Part shown: positions 11,451 to 64,000 of the stretch, piece by piece
Numbering within the stretch: the stretch's first letter is position 1
Layout: every line of letters begins with the position of its first letter
Source of the DNA: an uncultured archaeon
GTDB taxonomy: Archaea; Micrarchaeota; Micrarchaeia; Micrarchaeales; CABMGC01
Reading direction: 5' to 3'
Assembly (NCBI GenBank): GCA_963752955.1
Contig: CAVWAD010000002.1
Span: forward strand, 8,573-72,572
DNA length: 64,000 bases
The notes under the pieces: model-generated
Told to the model about the DNA's origin: nothing
The model's database searches: none
What the model saw: the letters and a program-made list of their open reading frames with translations, nothing else
Made by a program: the position numbers and the translations under genes

Positions 11451-11477
11451 AGGGGGAGAGATTTGAACTCTTGCACC
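11451..11477. repeat. partial copy of the tRNA-Leu 3' end (attR-like)
   Basis: AGGGGGAGAGATTTGAACTCTTGCACC matches 12200-12226 inside tRNA-Leu at 26/27 positions. Confidence 0.9.
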
Positions 11478-11478
11478 G

Positions 11479-11910
11479 CTACACGAAGTCCCTGATGTGA
11501 ATTACCCGCGGCAATTTTGCCGACCTTATCAGTTTTTCGTCCGCGGTGTACAGCTCGGAATCGGTATTGATTGCCAGGGCCACATATGCCGCATCGTAGA
11601 ATGAGATGCTATGCTTTGCTGCGACATCGATGGTTCGCTCCATCAGACCCGCATCCAAATCGAACACTGCGAAGTTATAGTTCTCCAGCGCATTCGCTAT
11701 CACTTTCAGTTCTTCGACGGTGAATCTCCTCGCCTTCGAATAGCGCATGGCGTTCATCACCTCGTAGAACAGGAGGGAAGGCTCGCTGAGGCTTATATTT
11801 CCCGAGATGAGCGAGTCCCTGAGCCGGTGCGCCGCCTCCGAGTGCACTTCGTTAACGAAGAACTTCGCTATGACGCTGGCGTCAGCCACTACCCTCTCCA
11901 TATCGCTCAT
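11479..11910 (-). CDS. vapC: PIN-domain toxin (VapC-like)
   Basis: The VVADASVIAKFF start carries the first acidic PIN residue. The protein is 143 aa and overlaps the upstream antitoxin ORF. Confidence 0.8.
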   Translation of the reverse strand: MSDMERVVADASVIAKFFVNEVHSEAAHRLRDSLISGNISLSEPSLLFYEVMNAMRYSKARRFTVEELKVIANALENYNFAVFDLDAGLMERTIDVAAKHSISFYDAAYVALAINTDSELYTADEKLIRSAKLPRVIHIRDFV

Positions 11911-12130
11911 CCCTGAACTTCCTTATGGTAGAAGCGATGTCGCTCTTATGCTTCTTCTGCGAGTTGAATATCTTGTCGGTCAACGCGACGGCAAGGGCAA
12001 GGTTCCTCTGCTCATTTATCTTCTCCTTTATGAATTCCCTGATCTCCGCCGACCAGTTTATGTTGGCCCTCTTCATGCTGGCCTTGGTGGCCTTATCGAC
12101 CTTGACCAGGATCTGTTCCGCGTTCGCCAT
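11882..12130 (-). CDS. vapB: VapB-type antitoxin
   Basis: This 82-aa ORF overlaps the vapC start by 29 nt and has a charged N-terminal putative DNA-binding region. Confidence 0.6.
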   Translation of the reverse strand: MANAEQILVKVDKATKASMKRANINWSAEIREFIKEKINEQRNLALAVALTDKIFNSQKKHKSDIASTIRKFRDERYGEGSG

Positions 12131-12196
12131 GAACTCACTTTATATACTGTATATACTATATAGATATAAAAGGATTGCGTTTTTCATACGCCGTCG

Positions 12197-12282
12197 TGCA
12201 GGGGGAGAGATTTGAACTCTCGCACCCACAAAGGGAACGGGTCCTAAGCCCGTCGCATTTGGCCAAGCTCTGCCACCCCTGC
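12197..12282 (-). tRNA. tRNA-Leu (anticodon UAG)
   Basis: The hand-folded cloverleaf has acceptor GCAGGGG/CCCCTGC, anticodon stem ACGGG/CCCGT, loop CTTAGGA, a long variable arm and T-arm GAGAG-TTCAAAT-CTCTC. Confidence 0.9.
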
Positions 12283-18660: not shown

Positions 18661-18938
18661 TTGTAAATCTTATTCAGCTCGGGCATTTTGATCAGCTTCA
18701 GGATTAATAACAGATAAAGGTCTTTAAAACTTGCTTCCGCGATAGAAGGTCCGGTTCGCGTATCCCGTCATGAAGAGTGGAACGCATTTGTAGATGCACA
18801 AGGATTAAAAGCCTTAAGCGCAGAAATTTACCTAGGCAAAGAATTGGATGGCCGACGCGACATCTTCGAGAATCAGCAACACGGATGCTGTTTATTGGAT
18901 TGAATAGTCAGTCAAGGGCCGTGAACTAGGGGTTAGCC

Positions 18939-28203: not shown

Positions 28204-28232
28204 TGGCGCCTGGGGCCGAGGCTTATTATTTA

Positions 28233-29753: not shown

Positions 29754-29766
29754 TTATTTATATATC
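29754..29766 (+). promoter_or_regulatory. TATA-like box of the giant surface-protein gene
   Basis: TTATTTATATATC lies about 30 nt upstream of the ATG at 29792. Its first 7 nt are the IS target duplication. Confidence 0.45.
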
Positions 29767-29791
29767 TAGTCAGTTACAGTATAACGTTTGT

Positions 29792-32700
29792 ATGCGAAGG
29801 CGAAAAACAGCCACGAGACCCGCATTACTGTACACCGCGCTGTTCCTGATCCTAGTCGCAGTCATCTCACTGAGCTTCATCCCCGCGAAATCGGCCGCGC
29901 ACGCGGGCGCGGCGGCGCAGTCCGTCGCGTTCTCCGCGCCGATTGCCTCGGGCGCGGGGCCGGCGAACGTGATCCGCCCCGCGGTCATGCAGGAAAGCTC
30001 GGAGTGCTCGGGCAATTCCGACTGCGCCTGCACGAATCCGTGGTGCTACTCGGACTCCGTTGGCGGGCCCGAGAGCTGCCATCCCTGCCCTTTGGGTTCG
30101 CAGCTGGGCCAATCGGCCGACGGGACGGCGATCTGCGCTTATAACAGCGGGGGCTCCATGCCTTTCAGCGCCGGGGCGTCCGGCACCTGCATCAGCGGAG
30201 TGCCGACCGCGAGCAGCACGGCGGCCCAGAGCATCGCGCCCGCGGGGACCCAGTGCTCGGCCGCCAACCCGTGCCCCTGCACGGAGTCGTGGTGCGTCGG
30301 AGGGAGCTGCCAGGCGTGCCCCCAGGGCTTCTACCCGAACGGCGTCGGGGAGTGCGAATCCTTGAGCGGCGGGAGCTATCAGGGCTTCACGACGTCGTCC
30401 GGCTGCACACCCAGCACCGCCGCGTCGACGATCAGCAACACGGGCGGGAGCATCGGGAGCGGGAGCGTGGCGGCGAACTGCCACGGCACCTCTGACTGCT
30501 ACTGCAGCGAACCTTACTGCGTGCAGGGGAACTGCTACCCGTGCCCTGCGAAATACAAGTGGGACAGCGAGACGTCGCAGTGCATATCGCTCGCAGATGG
30601 CTCCATATATTCCGGAACTGCGCCCACCGGCTGCATGAGCGGCATCGTGCAGACGTCGTCGGGCGAGAGCATAGGAAGCGGGAGCGTGGCGGCGAACTGC
30701 GCGAGCCCCGCCGACTGTTTCTGCAGCGAACCGTACTGCAACAGCGGGAACTGCTATCCCTGCCCGCCGACATACTACTGGAACAGCGAGAACTCGCAGT
30801 GCATATCGATCAGCAACGGCGCGGTATACTCCGGGGCGGCGCCCACAAACTGCAAGAGCACCCTTCCCTCGACTTCGGGCAACAGCGGCGGGAGCATCGG
30901 GAGCGGGAGCGTGGCGGCGAACTGCCATGGCACCTCCGACTGCTACTGTAGCAGCCCGTACTGCGTCCAGGGCGACTGCTACCCGTGCCCGTCGACATAC
31001 TACTGGGACAGCCCGGACGCGAAATGCGTATCGCTCGCCGACGGCTCCATCTACGCCGGCGCGAGGCCCACCGACTGCATGAGCGGCGTTCCGTCGACCG
31101 CCGCCACGGCGACCCAGACCACCTCGTCGGGAGGGACCCAGTGCTCGGCCACCAACCTGTGTTCCCAGTGCACTGATTCATGGTGCGTCAGCGGGGAGTG
31201 CCAGCCGTGCCCGTCCGGCTGCTACCTGAGCGGCGCGGGAGGGGCGTGCCTGTCCTATCCGTCGACGCCGGGGGCCAGCGGGGTAAGCAAGTGCGCGCTC
31301 GCCTCGTCTCCTGCCTCCACGTGCGGCAGCACGTCGTCCGGCGGAACTTCATCCAACGGCGTGGCTGGCGGCTCGACGCTCATCGTCAGCCTGCCCGGTT
31401 CCGCGGGCGTCGTTAGCATAGGAGCGGGCTCGCAGGCCGCGCAGCCGAGCGTGAAGACGACGGACGCGACCCTCACGTCGCCGCCCGCGCCCGCTGGCCT
31501 GTCGAAGATCTCGGCCGTCACAGTCAGCGTGACCCCGAACACGTCCGCGCCGGTCAGCGTGACGCTGCCCTACCCGTGCTCCGCGTCTTCGGGAGACATA
31601 GCGCCCTACGCCGTGGTCAACGGCGCGTGGAGCAAGATAGGCTCATTCACGATAAACCCGAAGGCGTGCTCAGTATCGTTTCCGATAAGCTCCGGGTCCC
31701 AGGCTTCCGGCGGCAGCGGCACAACGTCCCAGGCTTCCGGCAGCGGCGCTTCAACAGGCAGCGGGACCGCTTCGAGCGGCGGCGCTTCCTCGAACAGCGG
31801 CGGATTTCCCTCGGTCACGCTACCGATCCAGGCTTCTAGCGCCGTCGGCGCGCGCCCCTTAGTTCCCGCCATCGACGCCGCCCCCGCGGCGCAGGGCGGC
31901 GCTTCCCCAAACGCGGGAATCTCCCTTGACAGTTCGTCCTCGTCGGAGGGCACTTCCCAGACGGTGGGCATATTCGAGACGTCTTCCGGCTCATGCACCA
32001 ACTACTGCGACGGCGTCGGCGGATCCGGCGCCTCGTGCACTAGCATCATGAGCGTGGACGCGCAGGTGGTGCAGATCAGCATATGCCACCTCTACCAGAC
32101 GGTCACGACCGCCTTCGATAACCCGGGGTCGGAGCTGGCGGCGTCGGGACAGGCGGGGCCGTTCGACACCTCCCCGGCGAACGCGGTGAACGACTACAAC
32201 GCGCAGAGCGCGCTGCCCCTCCTCACCTGCCCGAACGCGCCCGAGAAGAACCCAACTGACGCAAGCTACTTCTACTCGGGAGCGGTCCCAAACGTGGCGG
32301 GCGACGCGTGCACGCCGGTGCCCTCGAGTCTGAAGACCGGCATAGACCTCCAGACCGATTTTTCGACCATGCAGATGGTCGCATACTCCTACAGCACCTC
32401 GCCGCTGCCCATACAGGTCAATGGCCACCTGGTGGAACAGCCCACCACGTTCTACGACTACGTGAGCATCGAGGACGCGAAGGTGAACCCCGACATGGTA
32501 GTGTCGAACGTCGGAAGCCTGCAGCTCGAGGACATCGCGTACTCGCCGATGATCCTGGATGGGTCGGGCGGCACGATATCTAGCGCCTTCGCGACCAACA
32601 GCTACGTCTTCGACGGCGTCCCGGCCTCGGCGCAGCACGCCATATGGACCTGGACCGCCCAGTTCGCGGACCTGTCCAACGCCGCGCCCGACCAGCAGAC

Positions 32701-35700
32701 AGTGGTGCTCACCGACCTCCGGGCGAGCTACTCATGGTCGCCGCAGGCGATACACCCCAGCAGCAGCTGCAGCTCCGTCCTGTACTCCTGCGTCTACAGC
32801 TACACCCTCACCGCGGTGACGTCGCTGAGCGGCATCGCCAACACCTACGTGCCCTTCAACGTGGTGACCCCGGACGGGCCGAAGCCGGTGAGCTCCAACG
32901 TACTTCCCTACTTCACGTTCGGCGCCTCGATGCCGACGCCGGACGGGCAGCCGATGTCGCAGTCCTACGACGTCTTCAGCCCGCTGAACTACTACACGCC
33001 GGGGAACTCCATCGAGATGTTCCCCATCAACACGCCGGGCGCGTTCTTCGTGCAGCGCGCCGTGAGCCCGCCCTTCACCAGCTACCTGCTCTCGATGCCC
33101 GAGGGCACGGTGAACAACGCCCTTGCCTTCGGCAGCGCGCTGGACGCCGCGTACGGCAGCGATCCGAAGTTGCCGCCGAGTCTCGTCAGCCTGAGTGCGG
33201 CGAATCCCGGCGCTGGCGCGGCGAATCCGTTCCCGGCCAACCCGATCTCGGTCACCGGCACGCCCGAGGGCTATGTCTTCGTACTAAATTCGAGCTGCAC
33301 GGGGCCGTATCCCTGCACGCCCACTTACTACCTCAGCATCCTCAGGCCGGTGGACAAGGGCTACTACAGCATCCCCGGCTACCAGCCGAACGGCGTGCCC
33401 CAGGCCGCCGCGGGGACCGACGCGGCGGCGAACGCCCTGTGGGCCGGCAACTGGAAGAGCTACTGGGAGAACGTCATGGCGCTGCAGAGCAACTCGATCT
33501 ACGTGGTTAACACGCTCACCCTCAGCACCCCCGGGACCCTCAAGGTGCCCGAGGGGACGGGCCTGCTCTCCGGCTACACCAAGCAGCTCCAGAGCCAGGA
33601 GTTCGGGCTCGGATGGGGGTTCGTGCCGCTCAACATAAGCGCCGACTCGAGCGGGGACGTCTTCATAACCGGCTCCGAGGGCGCGCTGCTGGGCCTGGGC
33701 GGCGGCTTCCCGGCGATAGTGGAGGTAAGCAACACGCTCAACCCCACGCAGACGCAGGTCACAGCGACGCCGCTCGACTGGTCGAGCAGCGTCGGGATCA
33801 ACGCCCTGCCCGAGATAGCGGCCACCTCCACAGGCGGGCTGATCTTCGCGACGGGCCCGAAGGAGGGCAAGATCTACGCGTTCGCGCCGTCAGGCGACGG
33901 GATCTCCAACGCCTACGACATCGACCTCGCTTACTCCGCCAGCACATCCGTGAGCGGATCCGGGACCGTGATGCTTAACGTGAGCTACTACCTGTACCAC
34001 GGCGGGCCCTACGGCGTCCCTATGAACGGCGCTGTGGTGAACGGGGTCCAGACGCCCAACGCCATCGACGGGAACAACAACCTCGACGCTGGCAGGGACT
34101 TCGACACCGACCTGCAGCACCACCCGCTCGGGATCCAGGAATCCGGGGGCTTCCTCTACGTTCTGGACGACTGGAGGGGCTACGCGGGCTCCAGGGAGTC
34201 CTGCCCGCTGCTGGGCTCCTGCACGTTCACGGGCGGGATGGCCTTCGACATGCTCTCTGTGAGGGTGCTCAACTCCACGGGTTCGAACCTGCCCGTGGAC
34301 CCTACGCGCTTCAACGACATGTGGCAGTCGCAGTCGTGCGACAACCCGATGTTCCTGGGCCACACTTCCGGCGGCCTGTCGGCCGGCGACATCACACCGA
34401 GCGCCCCCACGATAAGCAGCGGGCAGTCCGTCACCCTCACCGCCAACCCCTCTGGAGGGACGCCTCCGTACACCTACGGCTGGTACGTGGACCCCGGCTG
34501 CACGTCGCAGATAGCCAGAGCGGCATCCAGTACCTACACCACGTCCCCGACGGGCACGGACACCTTCTATTACAAGGTCAAAGACAGCGCCGCGACTCCC
34601 GCGACGGTGTGCTCCGCGGGAGACACCGTGACCGTGAGCAACGGCGGCGGAGGAAGCGGCATCGGAGCAGCGACCTGCGGCGGACCGATACTCCCGCCCT
34701 GCCCGGCTTCGGGCAGCGCCTCCCAGAGCGGCGGCACCGCTTCGGGTACCGCACCAGCCTCGCAGACTCCGAGCGCCGGCTCGCAGCCCGTGCAGGCCGA
34801 CGTGAACACGTGCTACGACACGACCAAGCCGCCGGCAACTTCCATACCCACGTGCTCGCCGAAGGAGTGCAGCCTCGCCATGGCGGGCTGCGACCTCCCG
34901 GGCGGGGTCGTCGGGACCAAGTTCTCGTGCGAGGACAAGAGCACGGGTAGCGGAGCCTACTCCACGCTCGCCACGAGCCAGTACGCCAGCGGCACCTACC
35001 CCCCCTATGGCTGGGTCCTCTCAGCGGACGTCGTCCCGTGGGGCGGCGAGGGACCCGCCGACAATGCCAAGGAGGTGACCTTCTGCTCCTCGTCGGGATG
35101 CTCGTTCAACCCGGGCAAGATGCCGGGCCCGGACATGTACTCCGGCGGCTACACGCCAGTCGGGCCCGAGCTCTCTGTCGCGAACGCGGAGATAGACTCG
35201 CCCGCCTTCTCGGTGAACTTCAACGGCACGCTTGACCTGCTGCTGAACACGCCGAAGCCGGGCATAGTATCGAGCCTGTGCAGCTTCTTCCTCGGCGCGC
35301 TCTGCGGAAAGCCGCCCAACCCGACGGCCTATTCAGAACTGCTCACCGCGGACCTCAACATACTGAACTACACGAAGATCCTCCAGGGCGAGCCGGCGTA
35401 CACCTGCTACACGACGGACACCAACGACCAGAACTACCGCGCCGGAGGGTGCAACTACCTGCCGGAACTGGGCGACAGCGCGTACACCGGCCCGATATAC
35501 ACTTTCCCGAACCCGCTCGAGTACCTAGAGAGGGTGGGCGGCGCGCAGACGCTGAGCTTCGCAGGCCAGGTGTCCTCGTCATACCCGTCGGGCACCAGCC
35601 ACGAGGGCTGCCAGAGCCTGATAACCGGGGGTCAGGGATGCACGTCCAACGCGCTGTACAACCCCGGCCCGCCCGCGCTGACGATCCAGCAGGATCCCGT

Positions 35701-38122
35701 CGGGTGGGGGCAGCCCGACGTCATAACCGGCAAGGCGGAGGCGGCGACCGACGAGGTCGTCATCTACTTCAACAACGAGGTGGCGATGACCGGAACCGGC
35801 ACCGCGTCGTTCACCGTATCCGGCAATCCTGCGATATGCACCAACCCCGGCAGCGTCACCGAACAGTACACCCTGCCCATCGAGAACTGCCCGCCGCCCC
35901 GCGCGGAACCGTACTCCGTGAACGTTGTCGACCTAACGACCGGCCAGTACAACGCCAACGCGCTGACCGTATATCCCGCGCCGCTCCTTGCGCTGCAGAG
36001 CTCCACGGTAGACGTCGAGCAGTCGGGCGCCGGGAACTCGTGCACCAGCGACCTCATAACCGCGAACGCGCTGGACAACGTGGGCACCGTCGTCATATCC
36101 ATAGCGGAACCCGGGGGCGGCGAGGTCGCGAGCGCCTCTGGCACGGGCTCCGCCTACTACATAATACCGGGCAGCGCCGGGCTCTGCGACGGCCTCACCG
36201 CGGGCACGTACACCGTCACCGCGAGCGTGGCCGGCCAGAGCCCCGTCAGCCAGAGCCTCTACGTCAGCACGACCACGACCCAGCAGGCCCTGCCGGCCGG
36301 GTCGGTGGCGACGCAGGCGCTGTCGACCAGCGTGGGCGGCTATGTTGTGGTGCCCTATAAGTACACCTACTCACTGCAGCAGGACTGGGGCGGCGCCGCC
36401 GAGGTCGTCAGCCTGTCCAGCACCACGCAATGTGACTGCAAGACGGGCTGCAGGACGCCTACTGTGGGAGCCGACTGCCCCTACAACGTGGTCCCCGACC
36501 GGCAGTTCTCGCAGCAGACGGTCTACAGCTACGCGCTCACGAGCGGCACTTCGGATACGCTGACCGCGACGGTCGAGAGCGGCGACACCTACCTGAAGAG
36601 CCTCAGCTCCGGCACGCTCTACGTCCCGAACATGTCCGACGCGGGCGTAGTGGTGCCTCCGCAGGTGCTCTACGTCCTTATGAACAACAGGCTCTTCGGC
36701 ACGCTCTACGTCAACGACACTGGCTGCAAGCATAACGGCGCCTCGGTCTGGGACTGCTCCGGGAACCCGCAGTACGTGCTCAACGCGACCAGGCAGGACA
36801 AGTACGCCATGAACTCATACTCGCAAGACGGCGGCGGCGCCGGTGGCTCCGGAAGCTACGAGACCCTGCAGGTCCTGCCCGAGGAGGAGCCCGAGTACGG
36901 CGCGAACCTCATAGCCCCGTCCCAGCTCCAGCAGGCGGTGACCACCCAGAACGCGATCGGCTTCGCGTACGAGCTGACGGGCGGGATGGACTTCGTCTCG
37001 ATCTTCGACCTCTACAGGCAGGTCGCCTACTCCAACCCGCTCTACATGTACCTCAACAGCACGCCGTTCTTCGAGAACGGGCTGCCGGTCAACGCGATGG
37101 GCTACCACAGGCTGACGTACGTCATGGAGGACAGGTTCGGCAACAGGATCATGGCGCCGATGGACGTCGACGTGGCCAACCCAGTGACGATAGCCCTCAA
37201 CGTCAGCACCGCGGTGGACCAGAACAACGCCAACCAGACCGCCCTCACGATAAACGGGGTCGCCGGGTCGTACTCGGACTTCGGCACGGTCTTCACCCCG
37301 CTGCCGGCGGGCCAGCCGGTATACCTCTACTACAACAGCAACCTCAACTACGTCGAGTACAACCCCATGCGCAACCCGCTCGACGCCGTCATCTGCGCCT
37401 ACAACCTCAACGACCCGACGAAGCAGCCGTGCCACCAGTCCGACCCGACTTACACCGGAAGGCAGGCGAACGCCGGCCAGATGACTTTCGCGACGTCGTA
37501 CAACTCCGCAAGCCCGGACGAGTGCAACCCCCCGCCGAACAGCCTGCTGGCCAAGAGCTGGACACCGTGCAACGTCTACGGGAACCTCGACCTCCCCTCG
37601 GCGTGCACCGGCGCGGGGCCGCAGCAGTTCTGCATGCCCGTGTACGCCAACGGCACGGGCGAGTGCACGTCGCAGCTCGGGCTCTTCGCGATCGCCCAGA
37701 CCGACGCCAGCGGCGCGTTCAGCGCAAACATAATAGCGTGCGGGAGCAGGCAGGACGAGATAACCGCGCAGTACTACGGATGGTCACCTACGCCGGAGCC
37801 GATCTCCGTGACGCAGGTGCCGCTCGCGCTCTCCGAGAGCAGGGTCAACACGCCGGGCTCAGCGGGGAGCGCGGCGATAACGTCCAACGAGCTCAACTAC
37901 TACTCGGCTCCGGCGCAGGCCACGACGACTTTCACGATAGGCCTCTTCGAGCTCAACTACGGCGACCTTGGGGTAGCCGCGTTCGGAATCGGCATAGTGG
38001 CGGTGCTGGCGATCCTGGTCGCGAAGAAGGCGGCGGAGGATAGGAGGGCGAAGAGGCGGCGCGTCGGGGTCCGCGGCCGGACGGCAGCAGGAAGGATGCG
38101 GAGGCGGACGCCTCCGATGTAG
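29792..38122 (+). CDS. giant (2776 aa) secreted, C-terminally membrane-anchored cell-surface protein with Cys-rich modules
   Basis: The signal peptide reads MRRRKTATRPALLYTALFLILVAVISLSF..AKSAA. It is followed by six tandem 8-Cys modules, S/T/G-rich linkers, an Ig/PKD-like segment (SGGTPPYTYGWY) and many N-x-S/T sequons. The C-terminus has a TM helix (VAAFGIGIVAVLAILVA) and a basic tail. The track ORF start at 29654 lies inside the IS and is an artefact. Confidence 0.85.
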   Translation: MRRRKTATRPALLYTALFLILVAVISLSFIPAKSAAHAGAAAQSVAFSAPIASGAGPANVIRPAVMQESSECSGNSDCACTNPWCYSDSVGGPESCHPCPLGSQLGQSADGTAICAYNSGGSMPFSAGASGTCISGVPTASSTAAQSIAPAGTQCSAANPCPCTESWCVGGSCQACPQGFYPNGVGECESLSGGSYQGFTTSSGCTPSTAASTISNTGGSIGSGSVAANCHGTSDCYCSEPYCVQGNCYPCPAKYKWDSETSQCISLADGSIYSGTAPTGCMSGIVQTSSGESIGSGSVAANCASPADCFCSEPYCNSGNCYPCPPTYYWNSENSQCISISNGAVYSGAAPTNCKSTLPSTSGNSGGSIGSGSVAANCHGTSDCYCSSPYCVQGDCYPCPSTYYWDSPDAKCVSLADGSIYAGARPTDCMSGVPSTAATATQTTSSGGTQCSATNLCSQCTDSWCVSGECQPCPSGCYLSGAGGACLSYPSTPGASGVSKCALASSPASTCGSTSSGGTSSNGVAGGSTLIVSLPGSAGVVSIGAGSQAAQPSVKTTDATLTSPPAPAGLSKISAVTVSVTPNTSAPVSVTLPYPCSASSGDIAPYAVVNGAWSKIGSFTINPKACSVSFPISSGSQASGGSGTTSQASGSGASTGSGTASSGGASSNSGGFPSVTLPIQASSAVGARPLVPAIDAAPAAQGGASPNAGISLDSSSSSEGTSQTVGIFETSSGSCTNYCDGVGGSGASCTSIMSVDAQVVQISICHLYQTVTTAFDNPGSELAASGQAGPFDTSPANAVNDYNAQSALPLLTCPNAPEKNPTDASYFYSGAVPNVAGDACTPVPSSLKTGIDLQTDFSTMQMVAYSYSTSPLPIQVNGHLVEQPTTFYDYVSIEDAKVNPDMVVSNVGSLQLEDIAYSPMILDGSGGTISSAFATNSYVFDGVPASAQHAIWTWTAQFADLSNAAPDQQTVVLTDLRASYSWSPQAIHPSSSCSSVLYSCVYSYTLTAVTSLSGIANTYVPFNVVTPDGPKPVSSNVLPYFTFGASMPTPDGQPMSQSYDVFSPLNYYTPGNSIEMFPINTPGAFFVQRAVSPPFTSYLLSMPEGTVNNALAFGSALDAAYGSDPKLPPSLVSLSAANPGAGAANPFPANPISVTGTPEGYVFVLNSSCTGPYPCTPTYYLSILRPVDKGYYSIPGYQPNGVPQAAAGTDAAANALWAGNWKSYWENVMALQSNSIYVVNTLTLSTPGTLKVPEGTGLLSGYTKQLQSQEFGLGWGFVPLNISADSSGDVFITGSEGALLGLGGGFPAIVEVSNTLNPTQTQVTATPLDWSSSVGINALPEIAATSTGGLIFATGPKEGKIYAFAPSGDGISNAYDIDLAYSASTSVSGSGTVMLNVSYYLYHGGPYGVPMNGAVVNGVQTPNAIDGNNNLDAGRDFDTDLQHHPLGIQESGGFLYVLDDWRGYAGSRESCPLLGSCTFTGGMAFDMLSVRVLNSTGSNLPVDPTRFNDMWQSQSCDNPMFLGHTSGGLSAGDITPSAPTISSGQSVTLTANPSGGTPPYTYGWYVDPGCTSQIARAASSTYTTSPTGTDTFYYKVKDSAATPATVCSAGDTVTVSNGGGGSGIGAATCGGPILPPCPASGSASQSGGTASGTAPASQTPSAGSQPVQADVNTCYDTTKPPATSIPTCSPKECSLAMAGCDLPGGVVGTKFSCEDKSTGSGAYSTLATSQYASGTYPPYGWVLSADVVPWGGEGPADNAKEVTFCSSSGCSFNPGKMPGPDMYSGGYTPVGPELSVANAEIDSPAFSVNFNGTLDLLLNTPKPGIVSSLCSFFLGALCGKPPNPTAYSELLTADLNILNYTKILQGEPAYTCYTTDTNDQNYRAGGCNYLPELGDSAYTGPIYTFPNPLEYLERVGGAQTLSFAGQVSSSYPSGTSHEGCQSLITGGQGCTSNALYNPGPPALTIQQDPVGWGQPDVITGKAEAATDEVVIYFNNEVAMTGTGTASFTVSGNPAICTNPGSVTEQYTLPIENCPPPRAEPYSVNVVDLTTGQYNANALTVYPAPLLALQSSTVDVEQSGAGNSCTSDLITANALDNVGTVVISIAEPGGGEVASASGTGSAYYIIPGSAGLCDGLTAGTYTVTASVAGQSPVSQSLYVSTTTTQQALPAGSVATQALSTSVGGYVVVPYKYTYSLQQDWGGAAEVVSLSSTTQCDCKTGCRTPTVGADCPYNVVPDRQFSQQTVYSYALTSGTSDTLTATVESGDTYLKSLSSGTLYVPNMSDAGVVVPPQVLYVLMNNRLFGTLYVNDTGCKHNGASVWDCSGNPQYVLNATRQDKYAMNSYSQDGGGAGGSGSYETLQVLPEEEPEYGANLIAPSQLQQAVTTQNAIGFAYELTGGMDFVSIFDLYRQVAYSNPLYMYLNSTPFFENGLPVNAMGYHRLTYVMEDRFGNRIMAPMDVDVANPVTIALNVSTAVDQNNANQTALTINGVAGSYSDFGTVFTPLPAGQPVYLYYNSNLNYVEYNPMRNPLDAVICAYNLNDPTKQPCHQSDPTYTGRQANAGQMTFATSYNSASPDECNPPPNSLLAKSWTPCNVYGNLDLPSACTGAGPQQFCMPVYANGTGECTSQLGLFAIAQTDASGAFSANIIACGSRQDEITAQYYGWSPTPEPISVTQVPLALSESRVNTPGSAGSAAITSNELNYYSAPAQATTTFTIGLFELNYGDLGVAAFGIGIVAVLAILVAKKAAEDRRAKRRRVGVRGRTAAGRMRRRTPPM
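30005..31330 (+). repeat. six tandem ~75-aa Cys-rich coding modules
   Basis: The module consensus is C-x5-6-C-x-C-x3-(W/Y)C-x3-4-C-x2-CP...C...C. The DNA stretches starting at 30443 and 30887 are identical for 41 nt and have 3 mismatches over about 67 nt. Confidence 0.85.
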
Positions 38123-38163: not shown

Positions 38164-39394
38164 GGCTTCATCCCATAATTCATGCCGACGCTAATCCTGA
38201 CCTTTTCGGGCGGTAAGATTTTGTTCCTTTCCGTCGATGCCACATTATGGGAAAGCCCAAAAGGAGGGCAAACCCGAAGGTGGTAACGAGAGTCGATAGA
38301 AACATAGCGGTATTGACCGCAAAGACCGCGAAGAGATTCGCCAATAGGCTTCCTCCCCCTTGGGAGAAGAAGACGAGGGGAAGTCCCCCGATACACGACA
38401 GCAGAACAGTATTCGTGCTGTGCCTCCTAATGGTCTCCCTGAACCTGACTTATGATGGCATGGAGGTGGAAAAACGGAAGGGATACCTTCAACAGGTGTT
38501 GAAGGCCCCGAACCTCCCGAGTCGTAGCGCATTACATCGAGGAATGCAACGACTTGATCAAAAATACATCAGGAAGTTCAATAAACTTCTCGTTAGGAAG
38601 TTTGTCAACAAGGGAATGACCGTTGCGGTGGATTCGACAGGGATACGACTGATGGTCAGCAGTTCGTGGTACGACATCCGAATTGGGAGGGTCAACAAAA
38701 GGAGGGACAACGCGAAATTGCACATATCTGTGGCCCTGCGAAGAAACATTATCGTAGGATACAAGATAACGTCGTGGAAACGAAACGATTCGCCGCAACT
38801 GGGGTTCCTATTGCGCGACATCGACGAACTTCTCCAGGTGCTGGGAGATGCAGGATACCTCGGCCGAGACAACTGCAACGTAGTTGCCAGCAAGAACGGG
38901 AGGCCGTTCTTCGCCCTTAAGGATGGAGTAAAAAGCAGGGCGAAAGGTTCGCAGGCATGGAAGGAGATGGTCGTATTCGCGAGGAAAAAGAAGGAGCTGT
39001 ACGACGCGATTTATCATGCGCGTTCGGTGATAGAAAGCATCTTCTCCGCGGTAAAGAGACGGTATGGAAGTTGCGTAAGGGCTGTGAATCGGAAGACGCG
39101 AAACATGGCGATCGCGCTGAGGGTGATCGCCTTCAACATAAAACAGCGCCTCTACGACGCAACGGCAAGGCGACTAGGGTTGCCATTCTGGGTAAAGTGC
39201 GACCGGTAAAAAGGACCTGAAGGTCATCAACAGTTAGCGGAAGCGAAGTCACATGAGTTCTAGGCCGATGTTTTCCGTCGAAATCTACGCCTTTTTCAGA
39301 AAATCGATGCCACATACGGCCCAGAACATGCAGACAATTCTTTCTCATCGACGGACAACCGCCTTCGCGGCGTCATTCTTTATGGGATGAAGCC
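38164..39394 (+). mobile_element. IS5-family-like insertion sequence (1231 bp)
   Basis: Perfect 15-bp inverted repeats GGCTTCATCCCATAA (38164-38178) and TTATGGGATGAAGCC (39380-39394) bound the element. A 9-bp target duplication TACCATGGG lies at 38155-38163 and 39395-39403. Confidence 0.9.
38247..39209 (+). CDS. DDE transposase, IS4/IS5 superfamily
   Basis: The 320-aa protein has VAVDSTGIRL, LGDAGYLGRD and a YHARSVIESIFSAVKRRYG (Y-x2-R-x3-E) region. Confidence 0.85.
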   Translation: MGKPKRRANPKVVTRVDRNIAVLTAKTAKRFANRLPPPWEKKTRGSPPIHDSRTVFVLCLLMVSLNLTYDGMEVEKRKGYLQQVLKAPNLPSRSALHRGMQRLDQKYIRKFNKLLVRKFVNKGMTVAVDSTGIRLMVSSSWYDIRIGRVNKRRDNAKLHISVALRRNIIVGYKITSWKRNDSPQLGFLLRDIDELLQVLGDAGYLGRDNCNVVASKNGRPFFALKDGVKSRAKGSQAWKEMVVFARKKKELYDAIYHARSVIESIFSAVKRRYGSCVRAVNRKTRNMAIALRVIAFNIKQRLYDATARRLGLPFWVKCDR

Positions 39395-40896: not shown

Positions 40897-40968
40897 GGGC
40901 TTGTAGCGCAACGGTAGCGCGTCTCGTTTGCAACGAGAAGGTTACGGGTTCGAATCCCGTCAAGTCCA
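40897..40968 (+). tRNA. tRNA-Ala (anticodon UGC)
   Basis: The cloverleaf has acceptor GGGCTTG/CAAGTCC with the G3:U70 Ala identity pair, anticodon stem TCTCG/CGAGA, loop TTTGCAA and T-arm ACGGG-TTCGAAT-CCCGT. Confidence 0.9.
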
Positions 40969-40996
40969 CTTTTCGATCTGATGGGACGGCCTAGGC

Positions 40997-41266
40997 CTAG
41001 TATTTATCTGGATGATGCTCGAGATTCACCAAGGAGACTATCTGTTCCTTGTCGTCAACTCTGAACATCAGCACAAACCTGCCGTGCATCAGGTGCACTT
41101 CCCGTACGCCGGCATAGCTGCCATGCATCCATTTGCCTGCCGTATAAGGCGCTTCGGCTATCTTGTCAAGCTTTTTCATAAGCTGATAATAAAGCGCCCT
41201 GTCCCGCTTCTGCAATCTGGCAAGCTCGGCTTCCACACTCTCTACGGGCCTTACCAGATACGTCAT
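40997..41266 (-). CDS. RelE/ParE-family toxin
   Basis: The 89-aa protein has the C-terminal pattern GRFVLMFRVDDKEQIVSLVNLEHH. It lies immediately downstream of a small antitoxin ORF. Confidence 0.65.
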   Translation of the reverse strand: MTYLVRPVESVEAELARLQKRDRALYYQLMKKLDKIAEAPYTAGKWMHGSYAGVREVHLMHGRFVLMFRVDDKEQIVSLVNLEHHPDKY

Positions 41267-41277
41267 TCTAACACGAA

Positions 41278-41505
41278 TTAGGCAAGATTGCGTCTCTTTA
41301 TCGCCCTGTCAAGCTCAGAAACAGATCTGTAAGTGTGGTATTTGCCTTTCGACAGCTCCATGAGCCCGCGTTCCAGCCCAAGGTTCCGCTTCTGACTTAC
41401 CACTTTCCTCAGTACCTTGACCTCGGCTTCAAGGCGGCCTATTTTGGCCGCCATACCCTTCAGTTCCTTCATAATCTGTACCTGTTCGGCCTTCATGTCC
41501 ATCAA
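41278..41505 (-). CDS. antitoxin partner (75 aa, coiled-coil)
   Basis: It is positionally coupled, 11 nt upstream of the toxin. It is similar in layout to 46972..47172. Confidence 0.5.
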   Translation of the reverse strand: MMDMKAEQVQIMKELKGMAAKIGRLEAEVKVLRKVVSQKRNLGLERGLMELSKGKYHTYRSVSELDRAIKRRNLA

Positions 41506-41627
41506 ATATTATGTGATTATAATGACTTAATAATCTTGCGTATGACAGTGAGATTGAGCGACATCTTTAGATAGCCAATTATTGATGCCATGAGGACTTA
41601 TGATGTAGTTTGTATCGTCTGGCAGCA

Positions 41628-41667
41628 AAAATACGCCTCACCTTATGTAGTAAGTCCGTCAAGTCCA
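41628..41667 (+). repeat. cassette junction A: conserved arm plus a 12-nt copy of the tRNA-Ala 3' end
   Basis: AAAATACGCCTCACCTTATGTAGTAAGT is followed by CCGTCAAGTCCA, which equals 40957-40968. It matches junction B at 37/40. Confidence 0.9.
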
Positions 41668-41678
41668 TCTAACCCAGG

Positions 41679-41897
41679 CTAGACGTACTTGAGGATATCT
41701 TCTTTTGTCAAGTTGCAATCGCTTAGGATCTTATTTAGTATTCCCTGCCCCAGTTCCCTGTTGTGGTAGGGAATCGTGGTGTAGTGCTGACCGTCGGTCA
41801 AGAAAATATGGCTTCCCTTTTGCCTAAGGGCGCGGTAGTTGTAGTATTTAGTAAGTATCTTGAGCAAACCCGTGTCTTTGATGGTCAGACGAGGCAT
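41679..41897 (-). CDS. hicA: HicA-family toxin
   Basis: The protein has the pattern RQKGSHIFLTDGQHYTTIPYHNRELGQGILNKIL. Confidence 0.8.
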   Translation of the reverse strand: MPRLTIKDTGLLKILTKYYNYRALRQKGSHIFLTDGQHYTTIPYHNRELGQGILNKILSDCNLTKEDILKYV

Positions 41898-41911
41898 ATG
41901 ACCACCGATCC

Positions 41912-42097
41912 TTAGACGCTGGCTCTAATGGCGATCTTATTCTTGCGCATCTCAACTAGGCCTTCGACTGTGACCTCTATGGCCTCTTTCAGGTTCTTTT
42001 TAAGCTCCCTTATCGTCTTTGCCTGAGTGTTTATGTGGAGCGAGGGTATTCGCGCAGCGTACATCCCTTTCTCCTTCCATATTTCTATGTTTTGCAT
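41912..42097 (-). CDS. hicB: HicB-like antitoxin (UPF0150 type)
   Basis: This 61-aa ORF lies upstream of hicA and has the YAARIPSL..TQAKTIRELKKNLKEAIE pattern. Confidence 0.65.
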   Translation of the reverse strand: MQNIEIWKEKGMYAARIPSLHINTQAKTIRELKKNLKEAIEVTVEGLVEMRKNKIAIRASV

Positions 42098-42159
42098 GCG
42101 CCTACCAAATATATTATGCTATGAAAACTTATAAAGCAGTTAGCCGTCTTCCGGTATCG

Positions 42160-42205
42160 AAAATACCCCTCACCTTACGTCGTAAGTCCGTCAAGTCCAC
42201 TTTTC
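42160..42205 (+). repeat. cassette junction B: conserved arm plus an 18-nt copy of the tRNA-Ala 3' end and its downstream flank
   Basis: AAAATACCCCTCACCTTACGTCGTAAGT is followed by CCGTCAAGTCCACTTTTC, which equals 40957-40974. Confidence 0.9.
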
Positions 42206-49003: not shown

Positions 49004-49109
49004 ACCACGCGTTCCGATCAGTAGCTTTGATGCTCATTTATTGAGCTTTTTATCCTTAAATATATGCGCATTATGATGTCTTTGCACCTAAATCGACTTA
49101 AAATGCGAA

Positions 49110-49141
49110 TTTTAGGTGCAACTTTCACCTTTTAGGTGCAA
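49110..49141. repeat. 32-bp subterminal direct repeat, left copy
   Basis: TTTTAGGTGCAACTTTCACCTTTTAGGTGCAA is identical to 50484-50515. It contains two TTAGGTGCAA motifs and the palindrome CACCTTTTAGGTG. Confidence 0.95.
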
Positions 49142-49209
49142 GATTAACTTAGATGCAAAGCCGGACCAAGGTATAGTAAAGGATCATTTAAAAACCCAGC
49201 TATGCTATT

Positions 49210-50307
49210 ATGAACATGGCAGTTATAGGGATAGATACCCTATCCATCGATATAAAAAACTCTCAACGTCAGAATGCAAAAGAATCATCTTTTGCATTTA
49301 GAACCATTCTTGGAGTTGGAGTCGTAGTAAATGATTATGAAAAATTTAGATTGGCGTATTCAGAAGCTATATTAAAAGCGTTCAAAACAATTTCATATAC
49401 TGAAAAAGAAAAGGAAGTTTATTGCAATTACGATTTCAGGAAAATATATGAACTTAGCAATGCCCCCGTACATAACTTGTTTTTCAGGGAAATTTCAAAG
49501 CACATAGATGGGCTATATGTCTTTAACACAACTTTTTCAAAATCAACAAAGATGTTTGCCTATAGTGAGATAAGCGAAGAGCTAGGGCATAAGCTTTCTG
49601 AAGACGCATTTGATTTTGATAAGGCAATAAATAAGATAACTGCTTACTTTCCTCTGATTGGAGTATGGTGTGATAGGGACTATCTGCGCGATGAAGTCTC
49701 ACAGATATATATTGATGGAATTACTCCGATACGTTTCAATGGCTGGAGAAACATCCAGCATCTGCCCCTAGAGATTTTATTCGAAGGAGATAAGTGCAAT
49801 GCTGTAATCGCAACCGCGGATATCATTGCATATCTTATTAGTATGAGATTGCGCCAAAAACGGCTAAAATACGGCGAGGATGGATTCAGGGAAGCACTGC
49901 CAGAGCTAAACGATAGATTACGGTATGTTGCTGTTACTCGAGGATTTTTCAAGTATATAAACCCGGTCAGTAATAAAAACTTGAATATTAACAGTTACCT
50001 AAACCATCCCATAATATTCTTATTCAAAGACGAAGCCAAACAAGTTACAACAGAAGTAATTCGTGCATTACCTGGATTCGACTCTGTTTATAATTTTGCT
50101 TTTAGGAAAAATGGGTCTGTTAAATTCTTCGACAAACAAAACGACCAAGGTAAAATCAGAGAGGGCGACTATATAGTTTATTTTTCTGAAGATGGTAAAA
50201 GAGAACTAAGTACAATTAAAGGAGTTATGGGAGAGAACATAAACCTTCTAAGCTTTGACCAAGTGCGCAAAGAAGGTGTTTATAAACATGCCAAACCGCA
50301 AGGATAA
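49210..50307 (+). CDS. uncharacterised 365-aa protein (possible RNase-H-like/DUF3800-like fold)
   Basis: This is an intact AT-rich ORF. The only motif-level hints are the N-terminal VIGIDT and a later NAVIATADIIAYLIS. No confident family assignment was made. Confidence 0.6.
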   Translation: MNMAVIGIDTLSIDIKNSQRQNAKESSFAFRTILGVGVVVNDYEKFRLAYSEAILKAFKTISYTEKEKEVYCNYDFRKIYELSNAPVHNLFFREISKHIDGLYVFNTTFSKSTKMFAYSEISEELGHKLSEDAFDFDKAINKITAYFPLIGVWCDRDYLRDEVSQIYIDGITPIRFNGWRNIQHLPLEILFEGDKCNAVIATADIIAYLISMRLRQKRLKYGEDGFREALPELNDRLRYVAVTRGFFKYINPVSNKNLNINSYLNHPIIFLFKDEAKQVTTEVIRALPGFDSVYNFAFRKNGSVKFFDKQNDQGKIREGDYIVYFSEDGKRELSTIKGVMGENINLLSFDQVRKEGVYKHAKPQG

Positions 50308-50483
50308 TCTTATATAGCCAGACGTTCTGTAAATAATTACGCCATGCACTATACCAGGGGCATGTCTACCTTGCATAGATATGTATGTGGGGCAACGTTC
50401 GCGTTGCCTCACCAGTAAAGTCTCTCTAGTTCGGCGGATTACTAAAAAGCCATTTAAGTACGCTATTTCTTATAGGAGTTCCT

Positions 50484-50515
50484 TTTTAGGTGCAACTTTC
50501 ACCTTTTAGGTGCAA
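50484..50515. repeat. 32-bp subterminal direct repeat, right copy
   Basis: This copy is identical to 49110-49141. Confidence 0.95.
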
Positions 50516-50620
50516 AATCGACTTTAAGTGCAAAGCCCATTATGATATCCACTCCAGAGAGTCGCCACATTACAGAAAGGGATATAAATTCGGGATCAGA
50601 TATTTAACCGTGGCGTTAGG

Positions 50621-58409: not shown

Positions 58410-58727
58410 GTGGTGCAGGAAATGGACAAAATAGTGAGGAAGGGTCTCGAGTTCGGGCTGGGCGTGGGCTACATAACCGTGGAGGCGCTTGAGGAGGCGA
58501 TGGACAGGCTCGCCAGGGAGGGGAAGATAAGCAAGAAGGACGGGGAGAAGATGGTGCGCGAGCTGGTGAGCAAGTACGAGATAGCCGGAAGCAAGTACTC
58601 CAGGGAGGTGCAGGCGCGCCTCGACAGGTTCGTGAAGCAGGCCCCGTTCGCCACGAAGAAGGACATAGCCGACCTCAACGCGAAGATAGCGCGCATGGGC
58701 AGGCCCGCCAGGAAGCGCCGCAAGTGA
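58410..58727 (+). CDS. small helical protein (phasin/PHA-granule-regulator-like?)
   Basis: The 105-aa protein is helical and charged, with an ATKKDIADLNAKIARM segment and a basic tail. Confidence 0.35.
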   Translation: MVQEMDKIVRKGLEFGLGVGYITVEALEEAMDRLAREGKISKKDGEKMVRELVSKYEIAGSKYSREVQARLDRFVKQAPFATKKDIADLNAKIARMGRPARKRRK

Positions 58728-62586: not shown

Positions 62587-62629
62587 ATGGAGGCACAGGT
62601 CATCCTACGTCAGGTGATGTGCATTTTCG
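62587..62629. repeat. cassette junction: 13-nt copy of the tRNA-Val 3' end plus the conserved arm
   Basis: ATGGAGGCACAGG (62587-62599) equals 63398-63410. The adjacent 62600-62627, reverse-complemented, gives AAAATGCACATCACCTGACGTAGGATGA, which matches the tRNA-Ala junction arm at 20/28. Confidence 0.85.
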
Positions 62630-62652
62630 GTGTTGCAGGCAACCTTATGGAA

Positions 62653-63069
62653 TTACATTATACTTTTCTTCAGCAATAACGACAAGTCGCCTATTGAGAA
62701 TATCTTTACTTTGCGCTGTTTCCTAAAATCGGTATCATAACTCCATATACCATCTGCGCGCAGACTCAGCGCGAGTGCGATATAGGGTTCATCGTCCTTG
62801 TCTATGCCTCCTATCACCTTATGAGCTTCTCTCATACTTTTCGCGTAAAACTGTTTCGGCATTATCCTGATTTTCTTAGTGATGAGTTCCAAGGCGGATT
62901 TGTATCCCTTTCCGGTTTTGGCAGATATTTCTTTTTCGTGTTCCTTTATCTCATCAAGCAGGAAGTCAGGCGAATAATAGTCAATATAGGGATAAAGCAG
63001 CACTTCCCTCGTTATTGAAGATCTGACCAACGCAGCAACAACTACATTGGCATCGACTACTATCTTCAT
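62653..63069 (-). CDS. vapC: PIN-domain toxin (VapC-like)
   Basis: The MKIVVDANVVVAAL start is present and the protein is 138 aa. It overlaps the antitoxin stop by 4 nt. Confidence 0.8.
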   Translation of the reverse strand: MKIVVDANVVVAALVRSSITREVLLYPYIDYYSPDFLLDEIKEHEKEISAKTGKGYKSALELITKKIRIMPKQFYAKSMREAHKVIGGIDKDDEPYIALALSLRADGIWSYDTDFRKQRKVKIFSIGDLSLLLKKSIM

Positions 63070-63287
63070 AGGCCATGCCTTTTGGCTACACCCTGCTTTA
63101 TCTTTTGACCTATTTCTATGGCGTCCTTCTCAGTTAGCTCGGATTTTTCAAGAAGTCTATCCAGTATGGCCAGCTTTCTGGCGTATTCCTGCATCGCACG
63201 CCTGGCGACTTCGCTCCACCTTATCTGCTTGTGCTTCTTTATTGTCTTGTATAGTTCTTCGGATATGGATATCGTTACATTCGGCAT
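63066..63287 (-). CDS. vapB: VapB-type antitoxin (RHH-like)
   Basis: The 73-aa protein begins MPNVTISISEELYKTIKK (a beta-strand followed by a helix) and is translationally coupled to vapC. Confidence 0.65.
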   Translation of the reverse strand: MPNVTISISEELYKTIKKHKQIRWSEVARRAMQEYARKLAILDRLLEKSELTEKDAIEIGQKIKQGVAKRHGL

Positions 63288-63398
63288 TCAATTCACATAT
63301 ATTATGTGAACTCACATATATTTAACTATTTGTATAAATCTGGGTTTGAGCAAAATAGTTATGAGAATTGGCCGAAGTCCACCGTACTTAAGGTGCGA

Positions 63399-63469
63399 TG
63401 GAGGCACAGGGAATCGGACCCCGGCTTGCAGAATGTCAATCTGCCGTCCTACCACTAGACTATGCCTCC
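63399..63469 (-). tRNA. tRNA-Val (anticodon GAC)
   Basis: The cloverleaf has acceptor GGAGGCA/TGCCTCC, D-stem GTCT/GGAC, anticodon stem GCAGA/TCTGC, loop TTGACAT and T-arm CGGGG-TCCGATT-CCCTG. Confidence 0.85.
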
Positions 63470-63533: not shown

Positions 63534-64000
63534 TCACAGCTCGATCGCTTCGCCCTCCTTCGCGATCTCCGCCTTCGGGAAGATCCTCTTCGCCTCCTTG
63601 AGCAACTCCGCGGTGTCCCTGTGCCTCGCGCTTATGTGAGTCAGGAGCAGCCTCTTCACCTTCGCCTTCTTCGCGATCTCGGCGGCCTCCTCAGCTGTCG
63701 AGTGCTTCCTCTTGACGGCCAGCTCCTTCTCCGCCCTGGTGTAAGAGGCCTCGTGTATCAGCAGGTCCGCGCCTTTCACGGCTGCGACGGTCACGCCCAT
63801 GGGCCGCGAGTCCGCCGCGTAGGCTATCTTCTTGCCGACCTGCCTGTTCGTCAGCTGCCCTATCGTGATCCTCCTGCCCTTCACTGTCATCGATCCCTTC
63901 TTCTGCAGCTCCGAGAACATCGGGCCCTTAAGGCCCGCCTTCTTCGCCTTGTCGGTTATGAACCTGAGCCTGTCGTCCTCCTTGAAGACGTAGCCGTACG
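63534..64000 (-). CDS. rnz: ribonuclease Z (C-terminal part; the gene continues beyond the window)
   Basis: The frame is open to the window edge (..YGYVFKEDDRLRFITDKAKKAGLKGPMFSELQKKG..). AYAADSRP, LLIHEASY, HSTAEEAA and LLLTHISARH are metallo-beta-lactamase/RNase Z motifs. Confidence 0.8.
   Translation of the reverse strand, partial: YGYVFKEDDRLRFITDKAKKAGLKGPMFSELQKKGSMTVKGRRITIGQLTNRQVGKKIAYAADSRPMGVTVAAVKGADLLIHEASYTRAEKELAVKRKHSTAEEAAEIAKKAKVKRLLLTHISARHRDTAELLKEAKRIFPKAEIAKEGEAIEL

Follow-up and report, generated by a model that had tools for sequence, protein, structure and literature searches.

The archaeal elements that encode tyrosine recombinases use attachment (att) sites of 8–26 bp, target tRNA genes and the 3' ends of other genes, and can form arrays by re-use of the same site (PMC6563490). 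In the integrated mobile genetic elements of Thaumarchaeota, these sites have a minimum length of 8 bp and a median length of 17 bp (PMC6563490). The present analysis addresses a unit of about 0.8 kb, carrying a vapBC toxin-antitoxin (TA) operon, that lies directly behind the tRNA-Val(GAC) gene in a 64-kb stretch of the archaeal contig CAVWAD010000002.1 (the whole stretch analysed, hereafter the window). With moderate confidence, this unit (62587–63397) can be regarded as a non-autonomous integrative TA cassette, inserted by site-specific recombination through a recombinase supplied in trans. TA pairs are known to move between genomes, by a route that is rarely clear outside integrons and plasmids.

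The unit and its relatives resemble the archaeal elements that target tRNA genes (PMC6563490), including those of the 'gene capture' described in Sulfolobus (PMC3718332), by their insertion at the 3' end of a tRNA, a repeat that restores the gene end, the tandem re-use of the site and a vapBC passenger. However, archaeal integrated elements are kilobases long and have an integrase gene or visibly had one in the past, whereas the units found here span 0.5–0.8 kb, hold one TA operon, show no integrase gene or fragment and have an arm that is common to unrelated cargo. Likewise, the cis-mobilizable elements (CIMEs) of Streptococcus, known from the tandem accretion seen among ICEs (integrative and conjugative elements) and IMEs (integrative and mobilizable elements), are integrase-less, bounded by att sites, arranged tandemly at a host gene's 3' end and presumed to be mobilised in trans (PMC5704250; PMC7563491). 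CIMEs differ in that they are bacterial, derive from ICEs or IMEs by deletion and keep both att arms of a known integrase, whereas the units found here belong to a DPANN archaeon, have no known helper and are far smaller.

Another likeness is to the cassettes of integrons and to the clusters of attC sites lacking integron-integrases (CALINs), including the archaeal ones (PMC9668308), which are small, mostly limited to a single operon, devoid of their own recombinase, provided with a recombination element at one end and assembled in arrays, which commonly carry TA pairs and which often have no adjacent integrase. The archaeal integrons described so far have IntI and attC (PMC9668308), whereas the units found here have no IntI, no attI, no R''/L''/L'/R' symmetry of an attC and no GTT crossover, and are anchored at the 3' end of a tRNA or other host gene; unlike in an integron attI, the shared core is made of the last 12 nt of the anchor itself. 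An array does occur at tRNA-Ala: it begins at the tRNA gene, its two cassettes have related ends and the arm at tRNA-Val is similar to theirs.

In the tandem arrays at ssrA (the transfer-messenger RNA gene) of Dehalococcoides, a short direct repeat of the small RNA gene's 3' end comes after every inserted unit; these units are genomic islands with whole operons, much larger than the cassettes found here (PMC3146451). Like mobile insertion cassettes (MICs) and miniature inverted-repeat transposable elements (MITEs), the units of the window are non-autonomous and flanked by direct repeats and, as for casposons, their targets are tRNA genes and gene 3' ends, with tandem insertion possible. However, MICs, MITEs and casposons require terminal inverted repeats and duplications of fixed length, neither of which is seen here, and no Cas1 gene is present in the window. 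As to the Dehalococcoides islands, they reportedly have dedicated integrases. Globally, the element is not categorically new in kind. In the literature searched, no account was found of TA mini-cassettes anchored at tRNAs in DPANN archaea, and recombinase-less, arm-bearing cassettes of a single operon, sometimes arrayed, at positions 62–73 of tRNA-Val and tRNA-Ala (in the window) and of tRNA-Thr (in Micrarchaeaceae, where the arm is missing) are undescribed in this literature.

Boundaries and content of the tRNA-Val cassette

The features of the locus are the following, all on the minus strand:
63399..63469, minus strand: tRNA-Val(GAC), intact, without encoded CCA (ARAGORN; Rfam, 66 bits)
63398..63410, minus strand: proximal repeat copy, tRNA positions 62–73 with one base of the trailer added, reading CCTGTGCCTCCA+T in tRNA sense
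63288..63397, minus strand: left cassette end, with the likely promoter and operator of vapBC, TTAAATAT and then the palindrome GTGAGTTCAC
63066..63287, minus strand: vapB antitoxin, 73 aa, ribbon-helix-helix (list of open reading frames; precomputed Pfam match of the identical protein to PF26688 RHH_12)
62653..63069, minus strand: vapC toxin, 138 aa, PIN-domain RNase (PF10130 PIN_2, E = 1.1e-22)
62600..62636, minus strand: arm, adjoining the distal repeat on its cassette side and reading GCAACACCGAAAATGCACATCACCTGACGTAGGATGA in tRNA sense (pattern search; alignment)
62587..62599, minus strand: distal repeat copy, attR-like core and right cassette boundary (homology between relative L008 and the window ends 2 nt beyond)

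The sequence-only reading of this DNA had placed the 13-mer ATGGAGGCACAGG at 62587 and at the 3' end of tRNA-Val, and it is indeed found there (62587–62599 and 63398–63410), corresponding to the last 12 nt of the tRNA plus one base. Positions 62–73 take in the final 4 nt of the T-stem, all 7 nt of the acceptor strand and the discriminator. The cassette is therefore flanked at both ends by an att-like direct repeat that matches the 3' part of the tRNA, and tRNA-Val, which is left intact, acts as its anchor, i.e. as an attB-like site. The functional repeat is probably of 12 nt, the 13th base being either a chance match or part of the trailer. That a vapBC operon merely happens to lie beside a tRNA, the 13-mer match being meaningless, agrees with the shortness of the repeat and with a 13th base that may match by chance, but this explanation is effectively refuted. 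Indeed, a count of the kind proposed as a check by the sequence-only reading gives two occurrences in the 64-kb window, still two when one mismatch is allowed, against 0.05 matches expected from shuffles, and none of 100 shuffles reached at least two. Furthermore, 3'-end copies lie downstream of all three tRNAs of the window (k-mer scan of the three tRNAs), the arm is conserved and homology with relatives breaks exactly at the repeat. Downstream of the cassette, no further degenerate copies of the core, which would mark older insertions, were found with up to three mismatches allowed.

The 798 nt between the two copies contain only two plausible genes, vapB and vapC, in agreement with the earlier statement that this interval of about 0.8 kb carries this pair alone; in particular, there is no integrase gene between the repeats. 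The antitoxin gene is directly upstream of the toxin gene, which it overlaps by 4 nt according to the coordinates, so that translational coupling of the two genes is predicted. VapB gave no match in separate Pfam and NCBIfam scans. Homologues of vapC were collected (46), and the acidic residues D6, E47, D90, D93 and D112 of VapC are invariant among the 24 that were aligned. Toxicity of VapC and addiction to the pair would be expected from what is known of the family.

The non-coding remainder of the cassette consists of 110 nt beside the tRNA and 53 nt beside the distal repeat. The region upstream of vapB is likely a promoter combined with an operator for autoregulation by the antitoxin, as judged from the TATA-like TTAAATAT and from GTGAGTTCAC, which are also found upstream of vapB in L008, L010, L011, L021, L024, L026, L031 and L101–L103. 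Within this region (63288–63330), TTAAATAT, a GTGAnTTCAC palindrome and ATGTGAAT are kept across homologues whose VapC proteins are just 46–84% identical.

The empty site that the sequence-only reading had proposed to look for was sought in two relatives. The first, L104, is a 237-kb JGI contig with an RNase Z that is 88% identical; it shows the order NFACT, RNase Z, an identical tRNA-Val, 74 nt and a lyase gene, without vapBC, and its BLASTN homology with the window genome stops one base past tRNA-Val. The second, L008, carries the cassette: an identical tRNA-Val is followed by vapBC (VapC 84% identical), by the arm GGAAATAC-TCACCTAACGTGGGACGT and by a decayed distal repeat, TCTGTGCATCCAT, in which 11 of the 13 bases are kept. 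Homology between L008 and the window extends from the tRNA promoter through 2 nt beyond the distal repeat and then ceases. The three genomes resume homology at a conserved gene of 101 aa (58422–58727 in the window), the DNA between this gene and the tRNA being different in each. As a result, the empty site of L104 is imperfectly clean.

The cassette is thus polymorphic, absent from L104 and present in L008 and in the window, with homology breaking off where the tRNA ends and 2 nt past the distal repeat. Its delimitation by the 3' end of the tRNA and a short copy of it, as had been put forward, is supported by L104, by L008 and by the comparison with a vapBC located behind tRNA-Thr (see below). 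Both cassette flanks differ between the window genome and L008. The cassette is thus a discrete unit, bounded on the right by the repeat, and the DNA directly behind tRNA-Val is a variable hot spot. On the few markers at hand, the window is nearer to L104 than to L008, which implies either a loss in L104 or two independent gains.

As to the origin of the DNA, the window is 99.5–99.9% identical to the 119.5-kb ENA metagenome contig ERZ25039471:contig_18973. The closest named relatives of the neighbouring RNase Z belong to Candidatus Micrarchaeota and Micrarchaeia, labels that are also borne by some VapC homologues, and the host is therefore an uncultured DPANN archaeon. In the ENA assembly (L001 9100–9240, compared with 63830–63970 of the window), indels frameshift the RNase Z gene, whereas the window copy is in frame; the two are therefore different assemblies of near-identical genomes.

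Sister cassettes, shared arm and related units

In total, the window carries four recombinase-less mini-cassettes at three tRNAs. Those found at the two other tRNAs are as follows:
40897..42205, plus strand: tRNA-Ala(TGC) array, the tRNA (40897–40968) followed by two tandem cassettes
within this array, Ala cassette 1: ParE/RelE toxin (40997–41266), antitoxin (41278–41505), arm (~41620–41655) and repeat (41656–41667)
within this array, Ala cassette 2: HicA (41679–41897), HicB (41912–42097), arm (~42152–42187) and repeat (42188–42205)
11451..12282, minus strand: tRNA-Leu(TAG) cassette, with the tRNA (12196–12282), vapB (11882–12130) and vapC, encoding a PIN domain (11479–11910)
12200–12220 and 11451–11471: 21-nt repeat of tRNA-Leu, covering the T-arm, with an imperfect extension to about 27 nt or more

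The two Ala cassettes end in CCGTCAAGTCCA, alone at 41656 (12-nt repeat) and followed by CTTTTC at 42188 (18-nt repeat); as at tRNA-Val, the 12 nt span positions 62–73 of the tRNA. According to self-BLAST, the arm/promoter ends of the two cassettes (41575–41667 and 42105–42199) are 78% identical over about 95 nt, whereas their gene contents differ. In the HicAB cassette, only 11 nt separate the core from the stop codon of hicA. The sequence-only reading had seen the same logic at tRNA-Ala and tRNA-Leu. This holds for tRNA-Ala, by both repeats and arm, and, for tRNA-Leu, as far as a vapBC flanked by a repeat is concerned. However, the latter is a looser parallel, because its repeat covers the T-loop region and because an arm of the Val/Ala type is absent from the tRNA-Leu cassette.

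The claim that the arm next to the distal copy is shared with the tRNA-Ala junctions was confirmed by a pattern search. Indeed, GAAAATRCNCMTCACCTKAYGT matches only at 41627, 42159 and 62607 (minus strand), each time immediately beside a distal repeat, on its cassette side, and in register, against 0 matches expected by chance. The arm spans about 35 nt, with the consensus GGYAnC-RAAAATRC-n-C-M-TCACCT-K-A-Y-GT-M-G-K-A-W-G-W at the Val and both Ala junctions, where the spacing between TCACCT and the core is always 12 nt. The genes of the three arm-bearing cassettes are unrelated, and the TA genes are oriented toward the tRNA at tRNA-Ala but away from it at tRNA-Val. The arm, which remains fixed in register despite unrelated genes and differing orientations, is therefore tied to the junction rather than to the genes; the role proposed for it is that of the half recombination site carried by the cassette.

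Other interpretations of the arm were considered. A remnant of a split integrase of the SSV type was rejected, as the 53 nt between the vapC stop codon and the repeat are too short and no consistent frame links the arms; the resemblance to a tRNA-like T-arm mimic or to an inverse core is weak and is not relied on. A small and weakly stable hairpin of 3–5 bp is possible beside the core in each arm (z-scores of 0.09 to -2.3 relative to shuffles), but the stems differ in sequence and their energies are marginally better than those of shuffles, so that it is not relied on either.

The vapBC family is found at various other targets. Contigs of Micrarchaeaceae, found in many samples, have directly behind tRNA-Thr(TGT) a vapBC (VapC 62% identical) that is bounded by CCTCCTGAGGCT, 12 nt that again correspond to tRNA positions 62–73. 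In L102 (1736–2604), an aspartyl/asparaginyl-type tRNA synthetase gene has a vapBC (71% identical) inserted at its 3' end, with a direct repeat of 56–63 nt that includes the stop codon and lies just 10 nt from the stop of vapC. In L010 (4585–5667; GCA_027332845.1), a direct repeat of 47 nt flanks a vapBC (72% identical) and covers the stop codon of the upstream gene together with an intergenic TATA-like sequence; this vapBC adjoins a gene encoding a DUF87-family ATPase with faint TraG and weak AAA_10 Pfam matches. Other flanking repeats are of 42 nt in L033, 18 nt in L024 and 30 nt of tRNA-Arg in L026. Overall, flanking direct repeats of at least 13 nt were found at 23 of the 85 loci of the vapC family, the maximum in the inverted-orientation control being 12 nt.

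The vapC of L021 (65% identical) is followed by a tRNA-like 3' fragment (1105–1200), which shows a T-arm and an acceptor end as well as an anticodon-loop-like stem (CAC) and is called by neither ARAGORN nor Rfam, and a truncated tRNA-Arg lies at the start of the same contig. In IMG/VR, no match was obtained with the vapC alignment, HicA, RelE or the VapC of the Leu cassette, nor with the 3' end of tRNA-Val; the 3' end of tRNA-Ala retrieved only an unrelated high-GC phage tRNA cluster, which was discarded.

A parallel architecture was found on haloarchaea-like JGI contigs (L043, L045, L049, L062, L064, L070, L073, L080, L081, L094 and L095), where a distant vapBC (~35% identical) belongs to arrays located at the 3' end of a chorismate-mutase-like gene of 95 aa. 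The last ~33 nt of this gene (…CTGAACAAGGTCGAGCAGCGGGAGAGTCGGTAG) are repeated two to four times with a spacing of ~1–2 kb (for example at 1972, 3059 and 4027 in L081 and at 2066, 3057 and 5008 in L095), and a conserved 30-nt arm, TTTTCACGAGAATCCATCATGGATTTCAGCTAC, comes before nearly all of the distal copies. This arm contains the palindrome AATCCAT.ATGGATT, a 7-bp inverted repeat that is 86% paired and shows compensatory change at two positions. The end copies diverge and yet keep LNKVEQRESR followed by the stop codon, including through AGT/TCN switches of serine codons. Therefore, each haloarchaea-like cassette brings a functional replacement end for the anchor gene, which is in turn a signature of site-specific integration rather than of fresh target duplication. 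Besides vapBC, the cargo includes another PIN gene and a 419-aa membrane transporter and is therefore not limited to TA genes. No integrase gene was found within the 2.5-kb flanks of these arrays.

These data bear on the explanation that the repeat is a target-site duplication, in which a trans-acting enzyme (a transposase or casposase-like), or else a template switch during replication, would have generated the 12–13-nt repeat by repair of a staggered cut. In its favour, the repeats match each target, whether tRNA-Val, tRNA-Thr, the end of an aminoacyl-tRNA synthetase gene or intergenic DNA, three junctions have exactly 12 nt over the same tRNA positions and the window contains several DDE transposase genes. 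However, the comparison of the left end with the reverse-complemented right end gave only noise of 5–12 nt in six cassettes, i.e. no terminal inverted repeats, and the repeats vary in length, being of 12, 13, 18 and 21 nt in the window and of 30–63 nt in homologous cassettes (30, 47 and 56–63), which makes it unlikely that a transposon, MIC or casposon mechanism was at work. Furthermore, the only recombination enzymes of the window are DDE transposases, with no Cas1/casposase gene, and the haloarchaea-like copies, which differ while keeping the anchor peptide by synonymous and serine-codon changes, fit replacement ends borne by the cassettes and not fresh duplications. Target-site duplication is thus considered improbable.

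Possible capture in trans or possible remnant of a larger element

No site-specific recombinase or integrase was found in the scanned open reading frames or gene tables (31.7–73 kb), the search covering the 64-kb window and ~9 kb beyond. If the cassette moved by site-specific recombination, the recombinase, encoded in neither cassette nor window, must act in trans. In such a mechanism, an excised form of the cassette, circular or other, carrying the arm and the 12-nt core would have recombined with positions 62–73 of tRNA-Val, which would have left the tRNA intact and a second copy of the core at the far end. The likeliest enzyme would be an integrase of the tyrosine type, with its gene at another place in the genome, on a virus or on a plasmid. 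Repeated use of one type of site would have given the two-cassette array at tRNA-Ala. Once inserted, the TA pair would resist loss by addiction, the stable toxin persisting in cells that lose the pair.

The most serious alternative is that a larger virus, plasmid or island bearing an integrase entered at tRNA-Val and that deletions left only the TA pair, a fossil att core and an attP arm, the cassette itself having never been mobile. Sulfolobus provides well-documented remnants of integration in tRNA genes, frequently accompanied by vapBC; one strain has 13 such remnant insertion events (PMC3718332). In the present case, the decayed distal repeat of L008, the divergence of the cassette at the genome-wide rate and the absence of a recombinase nearby all favour such a trimmed remnant. 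A strong deletion bias is also plausible, since genomes of Micrarchaeota are small. However, the four cassettes of the window, L011, L102 and the haloarchaea-like units each hold exactly one operon, with non-coding ends of 10–110 nt, and none of them contains pseudogenes or integrase fragments. In addition, the tandem Ala cassettes share a 95-nt arm/promoter end while carrying different genes, and the register of the arm is fixed across opposite gene orientations. Under this explanation, the repeated trimming to precisely one operon would be a coincidence, and the trimmed remnant is held to be possible but rather doubtful.

Several observations weigh against the capture of the cassette in trans, in addition to the lack of a recombinase in the region scanned. 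The cassette behind tRNA-Thr has no arm, and in L101 (74% identical) and L103 (70% identical) vapBC is wedged between housekeeping genes with neither repeat nor tRNA. The arm was found four times in all, in the window genome and L008 only; among 185,579 species genomes, its pattern has a lone match, in an Oxalobacteraceae metagenome-assembled genome, and it has none in IMG/VR. The Oxalobacteraceae match has no tRNA context and was treated as due to chance. The cassettes of the window and L008 show 82% DNA identity, to be compared with 80–82% for the flanking genes; an old insertion followed by a loss in L104 is therefore the simpler history, and the divergence at the genome rate together with the decayed repeat of L008 suggests that the Val cassette may have long been immobile. 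Lastly, the public runs gave no joint spanning the cassette, no excised circle and no empty site, the contigs available being short and of low depth.

The capture of the mini-cassette itself as the mobile unit is favoured because the one-operon anatomy recurs in independent contexts, such as L102 and the HicAB cassette of the window, and because of the tandem Ala array. It is preferred, as a reading with about an even chance of being right, to the trimmed remnant, which retains a minor share of our belief. With trans-acting capture, the insertion unit would appear to be the operon itself, with tRNA positions 62–73 as docking site and a conserved arm borne by the cassette, an arrangement present at four places within these 64 kb of a reduced DPANN genome, with a parallel in another archaeal phylum.

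The arm lacks an inverse copy of the core, a GTT is missing from the boundary and the only Rfam matches are to tRNAs; the units are therefore not canonical integron cassettes. An integron-like archaeal system can nevertheless be put forward tentatively, in which the 3' end of a host gene (a tRNA in Micrarchaeota, the chorismate-mutase-like gene in haloarchaea) would serve as docking site for single-operon cassettes, each with a lineage-specific arm and a replacement end, that a trans-acting recombinase would assemble in arrays. The cargo of such a system may consist mostly of TA pairs but include other genes as well. The finding of the recombinase would define a simple archaeal system of cassette capture and, if correct, such a system would explain how small symbiotic genomes gain defence or addiction modules without machinery in each element. 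If the cassettes are merely trimmed remnants, they would still provide a clean example of addiction modules that outlive their carrier elements.

Other insertions in and near the window

Several other insertions were noted. A low-GC (36.6%) insertion of 1.5 kb (49075–50572) carries a DUF8203 gene (49210–50307) and is absent from L104, where the dCTP deaminase gene adjoins that of thymidylate synthase. It has terminal repeats of its own, of 54 nt (49110–49162 and 50484–50537), with TTGCACCTAAAA motifs, which are not derived from the target. About 0.5–1.8 kb past the right end of the window, an insertion of 1.35 kb between the NFACT and RNase Z genes (L001 7243–8589) comprises an MNT-like nucleotidyltransferase gene and two small downstream open reading frames; no flanking direct repeat was found, and L104 has just 12 nt at this place.

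An insertion sequence of 1525 bp, encoding a DDE_Tnp_1 transposase of 459 aa, is present in the window as two copies that are inverted relative to each other and 99.9% identical (17137–18661 and 28232–29756), and additional DDE transposase genes lie at 1222–2169 and 38247–39209. Away from the tRNAs, the segment 24113–25412 carries an AbiEii-type nucleotidyltransferase toxin gene (24735–25412) with an adjacent 210-aa partner, which is another TA or abortive-infection pair. Finally, an open reading frame of 2822 aa (29654–38122) lies in a region of 65–69% GC and contains internal repeats of ~200–440 nt that are 74–83% identical (30187–31239).

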